Source: Stenotrophomonas sp. (GTDB lineage: Bacteria > Pseudomonadota > Gammaproteobacteria > Xanthomonadales > Xanthomonadaceae). Taken from it: a DNA stretch of 64,000 nt. Positions 15,470 through 43,435 of the stretch are shown here, one piece after another. Within the stretch, counting starts at the first letter, position 1. Every line of letters begins with the position of its first letter. Location: assembly GCA_051885115.1 (NCBI GenBank), contig JBJEWP010000024.1:12002-76001 (forward strand), given 5' to 3'. The notes beneath the pieces were generated by a model that saw only the letters and a program-made list of their open reading frames with translations, did no database searches and was not told the DNA's origin. A program made the translations under genes and the position numbers.

Positions 15470-15536
15470 GTGCGGATGCAGCAAAAATAGTTTCAATTGT
15501 GTCTAATACACTTCCCCCCGCACGATCCCCGCTGGC

Positions 15537-16211
15537 ATGCCTGCGTCCGTTCCTCCGGCCGCCTCTCCGGCCGTTCCCTCGACTGTCCCGCCGCGGCCCC
15601 AGGCGCCGGGCAGTGGCCATGGCCCGATTGATGACATCCAGGGCCTGCTGCTGGCCACCCTGGTCAGTTCGATGGGCCTGGCCATCCTGGCCCACGACAA
15701 CCTGCTGGTTGGCGGCATGGCCGGGCTGTCGTTGTTGCTGCACTACGCCTTCGACTGGCCGTTCTCACTGGTCTTTGTGCTCGGCAACCTGCCGTTCTAC
15801 TGGCTCTCGGTGCGCCGCATGGGCTGGGAGTTCACCCTCAAGACCTTTGTCGCGGTGGCAGCCTGCGGCGCCCTGACCGATATCCTGCCGCACTGGATCG
15901 ACATCACCTTCAGCGGTGACAGCGCCCTGATGTCGGCGGTGATCGGCGGCTGTCTGACTGGCCTGGGCATCCTGTTTTTCGTGCGTCACCGCGCCTCGCT
16001 GGGCGGCATCGGCATCCTGGCCATCTACCTGCAGCAGTCGCGTGGCTGGAACGCAGGCCTGTTCCAGCTGGCCTATGACCTGCTGTTGATGGCCGTTGCG
16101 CTGTTGGTGCTGCCGGCCAGCAATGTGGCTTATTCGGTGGTCGGAGCCATCCTGATCGGCATGGTGCTGGGCTTCAACCACCGCCCCGGGCGCTATCAGG
16201 GCCGCTGCTGA
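15537..16211 (+). CDS. YitT family membrane protein
   Basis: GGMAGLSLLL, NLPFY, RHRASLGGIGILA; about 6 TMs. Confidence 0.85.
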   Translation: MPASVPPAASPAVPSTVPPRPQAPGSGHGPIDDIQGLLLATLVSSMGLAILAHDNLLVGGMAGLSLLLHYAFDWPFSLVFVLGNLPFYWLSVRRMGWEFTLKTFVAVAACGALTDILPHWIDITFSGDSALMSAVIGGCLTGLGILFFVRHRASLGGIGILAIYLQQSRGWNAGLFQLAYDLLLMAVALLVLPASNVAYSVVGAILIGMVLGFNHRPGRYQGRC

Positions 16212-42430: not shown

Positions 42431-42444
42431 TAGGAAATTTCCTA
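42431..42444. promoter_or_regulatory. Perfect 14-bp palindrome, candidate NarL/FixJ-family regulator site
   Basis: TAGGAAATTTCCTA in the divergent M20/comEA intergenic region. Confidence 0.6.
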
Positions 42445-42573: not shown

Positions 42574-42891
42574 ATGAAATGGATCGCCGTGACCTGGAAG
42601 TCACTGGTATTGAGCATGGTTCTGGCAGGTTGGGCGTCGGCCACGGAAAAGGTCGACATCAACAGCGCCGACGCCGCCACGCTGGATCGCGTGTTGGTCA
42701 ACGTCGGTGCTGCCAAGGCGCAGGCCATCGTGGATTACCGGCAGGCCAATGGCCCCTTCCGTAGCCCAGAGGAACTGGCGCAGGTCCGGGGTATCGGTCT
42801 GCGCACTGTGGAGATCAACCGTGACCTGATCACGGTGGGTGCCGCAGACCAGGCTCCGGCCAGGACGGCCGGGCAGGTGCCACGCCGCTGA
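42574..42891 (+). CDS. comEA: ComEA helix-hairpin-helix DNA uptake protein
   Basis: Signal peptide, VDINSADAATL, VGAAKAQAIVDYRQANGPF, VRGIG; AAGGAG RBS. Confidence 0.93.
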   Translation: MKWIAVTWKSLVLSMVLAGWASATEKVDINSADAATLDRVLVNVGAAKAQAIVDYRQANGPFRSPEELAQVRGIGLRTVEINRDLITVGAADQAPARTAGQVPRR

Positions 42892-42899
42892 GCGTCACA

Positions 42900-43043
42900 A
42901 CGGTTCAGCAGGTGTTGCTTGCTGCAGGATGCAGCCGGCAATACCGGTAGGGGAAGGATTCCAAAAGGATCAGGCACGGATGCCAACAGGGATGTGTATC
43001 GCCCGGTGGCGCACAGTGACGTGCGGCCGGGCGATTTGTTTTT
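42900..43043 (+). ncRNA. CsrA/RsmA-sequestering small RNA candidate (RsmU-like) in the comEA 3' UTR
   Basis: ANGGA motifs with GGA at 42927, 42956, 42967, 42978, 42990; four sit in stem-loops; ends in a terminator; 5' end uncertain. Confidence 0.75.
42998..43043 (+). terminator. Terminator closing the GGA-rich RNA
   Basis: ATCGCCCGG...CGCAC-AGTGAC-GTGCG...CCGGGCGAT followed by TTGTTTTT. Confidence 0.75.
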
Positions 43044-43115
43044 GATGCGGGTGCCACCAGTGGGCGTGTGGTCATGGCGACATGGGGATGGCGCCTGGCA
43101 GATGTGGGTGGCGGT

Positions 43116-43167
43116 AACGCACGCACCGGTGAAGGTGGGGCCTTGCCGGTGCGTGCGTTGCTTTTTT
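43116..43167 (+). terminator. Second long terminator hairpin
   Basis: AACGCACGCACCGG/CCGGTGCGTGCGTT 14-bp stem plus AAGG/CCTT, followed by GCTTTTTT. Confidence 0.75.
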
Positions 43168-43435
43168 GGAGGCAACAGCGCGAGGCTACCGGCTATCGGC
43201 TACCAGTTCCCGCCATGTGCTGTGTTCCACAGGCAACAGTTGCGTGCAACTGGCAGGGGCTGCGGGCTGGCAGCGGCCCGTGGTTGCGGCATGGCCGGCT
43301 GTAGATTGCTGCCTGCCGACAATGACGACCATACTTGCTGCGCCGCAACGGCGGCATTTTTTGTTTATGGTCAGCGGTGTCCGCGGGGCCGGCAACTGCC
43401 GGTGACCTTGGATTACCGTTCTTCAGGCAGGTTCC

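Follow-up and report, generated by a model that had tools for sequence, protein, structure and literature searches.

The DNA analysed here (called the window below) is a 64-kb stretch, 64,000 nucleotides at its full length, of the genome of a Stenotrophomonas sp. whose assembly comprises 2.86 Mb in 191 contigs and is 95% complete. The closest named genome is that of Stenotrophomonas koreensis DSM 17805, so the original prediction, which had assigned this DNA to a lineage other than Xanthomonas, was right in that respect. A comEA-like gene lies at 42574–42891 (+) and encodes a protein of 105 amino acids with a signal peptide and a helix-hairpin-helix domain of the ComEA type (match to Pfam PF12836 HHH_3, E 3.6e-18). 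The corresponding ComEA protein of S. koreensis is 98% identical, and the non-coding region that follows the gene, which is our main subject, is 87% identical between these two genomes.

Downstream of the comEA stop codon the plus strand carries a compact series of GGA motifs that ends in an intrinsic terminator. A spacer from the stop codon to the core of the first hairpin (42892–42920) is the expected region of endonucleolytic processing, with a predicted 5' end of the RNA between 42907 and 42921. Hairpin 1 (42908–42948) has a long stem and presents a GGA (42927–29) in a loop of three nucleotides, and its homologues in other genera are likewise GGA-loop hairpins with compensatory changes in their stems. 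It is followed by hairpin 2 (GGAA-GGA-UUCC, 42952–42962), which has one GGA in its loop (42956–58) and an additional one in its 5' arm (42952–54, within GGGGAAGGA), and then by the single-stranded sequence AAAAGGAUC (in DNA AAAAGGATC, 42963–42971), whose GGA (42967–69) aligns to a conserved GGGGA spacer of other genera. Hairpin 3 (GGCA-CGGA-UGCC, 42973–42984) has its GGA at 42978–80 in the loop, and next to it lies ACAGGGAUGU (42986–42995, ACA-GGGA-TGT in DNA, GGA at 42990–92), a predicted high-affinity CsrA-type site. The terminator (42998–43043) has an outer stem of 10 bp, an inner stem of 4–5 bp and a U-rich tail. Direct reading of the sequence bears out the GGA-loop hairpins, AAAAGGATC and the terminator of the original prediction at these positions, but two of its details need amendment: the cluster of GGA motifs after comEA is there but has six triplets and not five (the extra one being 42952–54), and the first hairpin as it was drawn, GCUGCA-GGA-UGCAGC (42921–35), is present but is only the tip of the longer stem. 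The CsrA SELEX consensus is RUACARGGAUGU, and the proposed resemblance of ACAGGGAUGU to it holds at 10 of the 12 positions; the 10-mer ACARGGATGT occurs only five times in the genome, counting both strands.

The whole region (154 nt) folds better than each of 200 shuffled sequences (z = -3.64). The GGA of hairpin 1 is predicted to be unpaired with a probability of 1.00 and that of hairpin 3 with a probability of 0.91–0.99; two GGAs are thus predicted to be exposed (1.00 and about 0.9–1.0), and the exposure of two others hinges on the outcome of a competition between two folds. An alternative pairing, GAUUC/GGAUC, is favoured thermodynamically and buries the GGAs at 42956 and 42967, and in the long form of the RNA the thermodynamic fold also pairs ACAGGGAU with the U-tail. 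In the S. koreensis orthologue hairpin 2 is preserved and the alternative GAUUC/GGAUC pairing is broken, and for this reason comparison favours the hairpin 2 drawing.

The element is the sole place in the window, on either strand, with at least four loop-presented GGA hairpins per 100 nt, and its six GGAs in 80 nt put it in the top 0.07% of such segments of the 64-kb stretch. When the same lenient criterion for loop GGAs was applied to the whole genome, 71 places satisfied it, so the pattern of GGA hairpins is weak evidence by itself and the case therefore rests on conservation. The densest GGA cluster of the window is a different one (15489–15627, -; 8 GGA in 80 nt). It lies between two plus-strand genes, one for a pilT/pilU-like ATPase and one for a YitT-family membrane protein, on the strand opposite to them, and it folds no better than its shuffles (z = -0.51).

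A search of the sequence between comEA and the RNA revealed no sigma-70-like promoter, a result that fits their co-transcription. Directly 3' of the terminator there is a second long hairpin with a U-tail (43046–43165, +). Comparison of this hairpin with its S. koreensis counterpart shows that its loop GAAGGUGGGGCCU and the upstream sequence GCGACAUGGGGNUGGCGC have been kept and that its stem of about 17 bp has been almost wholly replaced, with compensatory changes; it could represent either another small RNA or a tandem terminator that has been conserved, and an Rfam search of it gave chance-level matches only. A third terminator-like site is found at 43335–43362. The idea that the GGA-rich region is a leader or riboswitch of the MFS gene downstream was considered and rejected, since three terminators lie between the two, the downstream neighbour varies from genus to genus and the upstream comEA is constant.

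A small RNA at the same position is known from Xanthomonas campestris pv. campestris 8004, as the original prediction correctly stated. RsmU (sRX061) is found there as RNAs of 77 nt and 117 nt, the longer of which extends through a terminator of 40 nt; its 5' end lies 25 nt past the stop codon of comEA (XC1332), and its production requires the comEA promoter. Binding to RsmA was shown both in vitro and in vivo (by EMSA and co-immunoprecipitation), and an rsmA mutant has no detectable RsmU (Tang et al. 2020, PMC7694677). Its regulon and that of RsmA are not identical, and BLAST searches led the authors to conclude that RsmU is present with >90% identity in all Xanthomonas and absent from other bacteria (PMC7694677). 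The true RsmU sequence was located with the published primers (PMC7694677): four loci have both of them as exact matches, 117 nt apart and with the first 25 nt past the comEA stop codon, and one of these (L143:1471-1587) serves as our reference.

The Stenotrophomonas RNA aligns with this true RsmU from end to end and collinearly, and 80 of the 114 aligned positions (70%) are identical. Both lie in the comEA 3' UTR, on the same strand and directly after the stop codon, and both have the same order of modules: a GGA-loop hairpin, a second GGA-loop hairpin, a G-rich single-stranded GGA, the GGCNGGANGCC hairpin, ACARGGAYGU, and a terminator of the form CGCCCGGUG...GCAGCCGGGCG. They differ in the host, in hairpin 1, which is lengthened to a stem of about 40 nt in Stenotrophomonas, and in the number of GGA triplets (six, against eight by sequence count in the X. 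campestris RNA). The X. campestris 5' end aligns to about 42921. A heptamer, ACGGTTC (42900–06), was entertained as the context of the cleavage site owing to its similarity to X. campestris, but the multiple alignment does not support it and it was not used in placing the 5' end.

For a test of conservation across genera, the 3' module was aligned in 53 comEA 3' UTRs, with named genomes from Stenotrophomonas, Xanthomonas (translucens and maliensis), Pseudoxanthomonas, Luteimonas, Lysobacter and Vulcaniibacterium; five rows whose anchor fell on the terminator loop and not on the ACARGGA site were omitted from this alignment (A2). None of the 53 aligned sequences departs from CA-GGA-G. RNAalifold predicted only the terminator from the alignment, and the hand-drawn structure (three GGA-presenting hairpins and the terminator, 25 pairs) was therefore tested by pair counting. 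Of the cells so counted 86.6% are paired, compared with at most 41% when the partners are slid; 19 of the 25 pairs change on both sides, and none of 500 shuffles reaches the observed values. The outer helix of the terminator is paired in 96% of cases and has compensatory changes across genera in eight of its ten pairs. Hairpin 2 corresponds to the first helix of the alignment (columns 5–15), in which all three pairs change on both sides, and hairpin 3 to the second, which is 81% paired and in which GGCA/UGCC is replaced by GGCU/AGCC, GGCC/GGCC or GGGC/GCCC. The terminator is thus the best-supported helix; conservation extends to the small hairpins, in which there is a degree of covariation. 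These compensatory changes around an invariant CA-GGA-G are what the proposed covariation check of comEA 3' regions was meant to look for, and loss of the GGA motifs from orthologous loci, which would have spoken against the prediction, was not found except for erosion in one Xylella-like genome (below).

A covariance model (R1) was built from the 53-sequence alignment without any sequences of the X. campestris clade. In the source genome it has a single match, to the 3' module of the RNA (42951–43045, +; G000:C24:54952-55046), with 78.7 bits and an E-value of 3.6e-13, which is a rough figure since calibration was short, and weight is accordingly placed on bit scores and on the locus-specific single-copy pattern. 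The true RsmU loci score about 78 bits with this same model. With the 70% identity and the collinear modules, these nearly equal scores uphold the proposal that the window contains an unannotated RNA of the RsmU type. The element is single-copy in the genome by BLAST as well as by the covariance model, and the genome has one csrA gene, which encodes an intact, canonical CsrA of 65 amino acids.

Among 401 genomes of the family R1 finds matches in 213, which belong to 39 of the 64 genera, and there is almost always one match per genome; these genera include Stenotrophomonas, Pseudoxanthomonas, Luteimonas, Lysobacter and that of the Xylella-like genome. Genus labels such as 'Xylella-like' are deduced from genome size and composition. 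When genomes sampled from the order were searched, every one of the 19 matches fell within the same family, and about 175 genomes of other families gave none. At the best 30 R1 loci comEA is immediately upstream and on the same strand in every case, while the downstream neighbour differs between genera (it is hutD-like in many). Judged by these sequences, RsmU is a family-wide RNA of the Lysobacteraceae/Xanthomonadaceae, which contradicts its published restriction to Xanthomonas; it is an old, single-copy trait of the family in its entirety and is absent from the genomes sampled in neighbouring families.

The number of GGA sites varies widely. In the comEA 3' UTRs of 73 genomes there are 5 to 19 GGAs (median 9) within the 100 to 306 nt between stop codon and terminator, a number that looks to be under selection; the six of the window's version are at the low end of the family. 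Several Stenotrophomonas have 16–19 GGAs in about 300 nt, and in Pseudoxanthomonas a GGCAGGAYGCC-GACARGGAYGU module has been duplicated. Most Stenotrophomonas (loci L011–L019 and L023–L032; same-genus genomes G001–G023) have comEA 3' UTRs of 264–306 nt with 12–19 GGAs. These long UTRs are CsrB-sized, about twice as long as the window's version or X. campestris RsmU.

Homology, position, conserved structure, the invariant GGA context, single copy number and the presence of the CsrA partner all point the same way, and we consider it highly probable that the plus-strand segment from about 42907/42921 to 43043 is the Stenotrophomonas RsmU orthologue, a small RNA in the 3' UTR of the comEA mRNA. 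By analogy with X. campestris we infer its transcription, its processing, its binding of RsmA and its physiological effect in the present Stenotrophomonas sp. Transcription of comEA would start at the gene's own promoter and run on to the end of the intrinsic terminator at 43043, and an endonuclease would cut between the stop codon and hairpin 1 to give an RNA of about 125–137 nt; a shorter form of about 80 nt, without the terminator, is possible in addition. The cut would fall within 42907–42921, where alignment of the X. campestris 5' end suggests a site close to 42921 and the long stem of hairpin 1 suggests one further upstream. The six GGA motifs (three in hairpin loops, one in the near-consensus ACAGGGAUGU and one in the single-stranded spacer among them) would bind CsrA/RsmA dimers, RsmA would be titrated from its mRNA targets, and the bound RNA would itself be stabilised. 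Even in X. campestris the evidence for a sponge is mixed: loss of RsmU by deletion had no phenotypic effect, an RsmU with four GGAs replaced by AAU kept both RsmA binding and the overexpression phenotype, and the regulons of RsmU and RsmA did not coincide fully (PMC7694677).

A serious rival to this sponge model, and one that is compatible with it, is a role chiefly in cis for the GGA-rich 3' UTR: bound RsmA would set the stability or yield of the comEA mRNA and so couple DNA uptake to RsmA, and the processed fragment would be a by-product. We hold this to be possible but not the likely main role. The RsmA of X. campestris binds comEA mRNA at its full length but not the isolated ORF, an rsmA mutation lowers the stability of this mRNA, and deletion of RsmU has no phenotype (PMC7694677), all of which a cis role would explain, as it would the strict linkage to comEA at the 30 best loci. 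On the other hand, 16–19 GGAs in about 300 nt, as in some Stenotrophomonas and Pseudoxanthomonas, exceed what regulation in cis appears to need and are typical of sponges, the 77-nt form reaches very high levels in X. campestris (RPKM 5189, with 997 for the mRNA; PMC7694677), and overexpressing RsmU by itself brings about some of the phenotype of an rsmA mutant (PMC7694677).

Many small RNAs derived from 3' UTRs act by antisense pairing, and an RNA that base-pairs with mRNAs, possibly with the aid of a chaperone, and whose GGAs are incidental is an alternative that we regard as improbable. In its favour, the X. campestris RsmU in which four GGAs had been changed to AAU retained its overexpression phenotype; that mutant also retained RsmA binding (PMC7694677). 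As RsmU has eight GGAs, a mutant in four would keep binding sites, and it could still be active for the reason that these others remain. RsmU, moreover, did not bind Hfq in EMSA (PMC7694677), and the parts that are invariant across the 39 genera are the CsrA-type CA-GGA-G and the GGA loops, with no longer single-stranded seed among them. Finally, that the region is a mere terminator after chance GC-rich hairpins, or one copy of a dispersed REP/SMAG-like palindromic repeat with GGAs in its loops, is very hard to believe in spite of the 71 loop-GGA clusters in the genome, since a repeat is excluded by the single copy and 213 genomes have orthologues of the element at one and the same locus, with a GGA context that is invariant while the stems covary.

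If the Stenotrophomonas RNA is an RsmU that sequesters RsmA, as we prefer, its closest analogues in action are CsrB, CsrC and RsmB and RsmX, RsmY and RsmZ (Rfam clan CL00106), with which it shares GGAs in short hairpin loops and single-stranded spacers, an intrinsic terminator, a CsrA/RsmA partner and the presumed mode of action. The original prediction had likened it to CsrB, RsmY and RsmZ; the likeness of architecture stands, but membership in the clan, by sequence or structure, does not. No Rfam family matched the element at its gathering threshold, and permissive thresholds gave chance-level matches only (the best was CsrC, with 15.8 bits against a cut-off of 61). The bona fide RsmU likewise has no match, as Rfam contains no such family, and the silence of Rfam on the element is therefore uninformative. 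RNAs of the CsrB/RsmY type are also independent genes under GacA/UvrY control, whereas the comEA RNA belongs to the 3' UTR of an mRNA, and its production in Xanthomonas requires the comEA promoter. In its probable biogenesis it resembles the enterobacterial RNAs CpxQ and SroC, which have a parent mRNA, share its terminator and are processed downstream of its stop codon, but these act by Hfq-dependent base pairing and RsmU by binding RsmA, with no binding of Hfq.

What drives the comEA-RsmU transcript is of interest in view of a 2021 review according to which the upstream regulators of RsmA and RsmU are not known (PMC7831014). A perfect palindrome, TAGGAAATTTCCTA (42431–42444), lies 5' of comEA and is a candidate operator for this transcript. 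A sequence of the form (T/G)GTAGG-N6-CCTACA occurs at a fixed distance 5' of comEA in most of the genomes that have the RNA, and also in a few that do not. In the whole 2.86-Mb genome TAGG-N6-CCTA has only two copies; the second (C181:25863) is situated between an isocitrate-lyase-like gene and a gene for a cNMP-binding GGDEF protein and has no GGA-rich RNA after it; the palindrome is therefore not confined to sponge RNAs. Similar palindromes were seen by eye 5' of comEA in two genomes from other families of the order (G038, and also G028, where the spacer is longer). One base in each half-site (A to G) separates the family palindrome from the GacA box, TGTAAG-N6-CTTACA, and a whole-genome motif search found no canonical GacA box. 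The best UvrY/GacA-like response regulator of the genome scores 212 bits against a family cut-off of 280 and is without uvrC downstream; its gene (C146:16813-17445, -) shares a contig with csrA (C146:34708-34863, -), about 17 kb away. Gac-type control of comEA-RsmU is thus a possible lead only.

Two observations in Stenotrophomonas maltophilia may bear on the RNA. In seven isolates comEA is among the most highly expressed genes (PMC7688217), and extra copies of the comE homologue smlt1134 with its own promoter lowered the proportion of blaL2-ON cells from >90% to <1%, while deletion of smlt1134 had no effect; the authors credited the protein (PMC4667094). An effect on overexpression only is the same pattern as that of RsmU in X. 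campestris. It is conceivable, though we would call it speculative and on balance rather unlikely, that comEA-RsmU is the missing family-wide sponge arm of the Csr/Rsm system in the Lysobacteraceae, driven by a regulator through TGTAGG-N6-CCTACA, and that in the S. maltophilia group a CsrB-sized RNA with 16–19 GGAs, and not the ComEA protein, could explain both the high 'comEA' expression (PMC7688217) and the blaL2 switch (PMC4667094).

The findings have several uses. The element very probably gives the 64-kb window an unannotated RsmU orthologue, and the covariance model can now be used for annotation in a family of RNAs that Rfam lacks. In Xanthomonas and related bacteria RsmA/CsrA governs motility, biofilm formation, secretion systems and virulence, and the family offers a natural series of 5 to 19 GGA sites in which the capacity of a sponge could be tested. 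The comEA phenotypes of S. maltophilia, an opportunistic pathogen, also acquire an alternative reading.

Two variants of the element are worth recording. In the Xylella-like genome (locus L151, G049:C1:2076900-2077800, minus strand; a low-GC genome of 2.8 Mb) the scaffold is kept after comEA but the loop GGAs of hairpins 1–3 have become GAU or AGA, a decay that may represent erosion of RsmA binding in a reduced genome. Two genomes of the S. maltophilia group have a second, weak R1 match of about 36–38 bits (L152, G012:C102; L153, G214:C3) in the short 3' UTR of a small membrane-protein gene, where GCGCAGGGAUGCGC and GCAAGGAUGC lie just before the terminator in a miniature two-site design.
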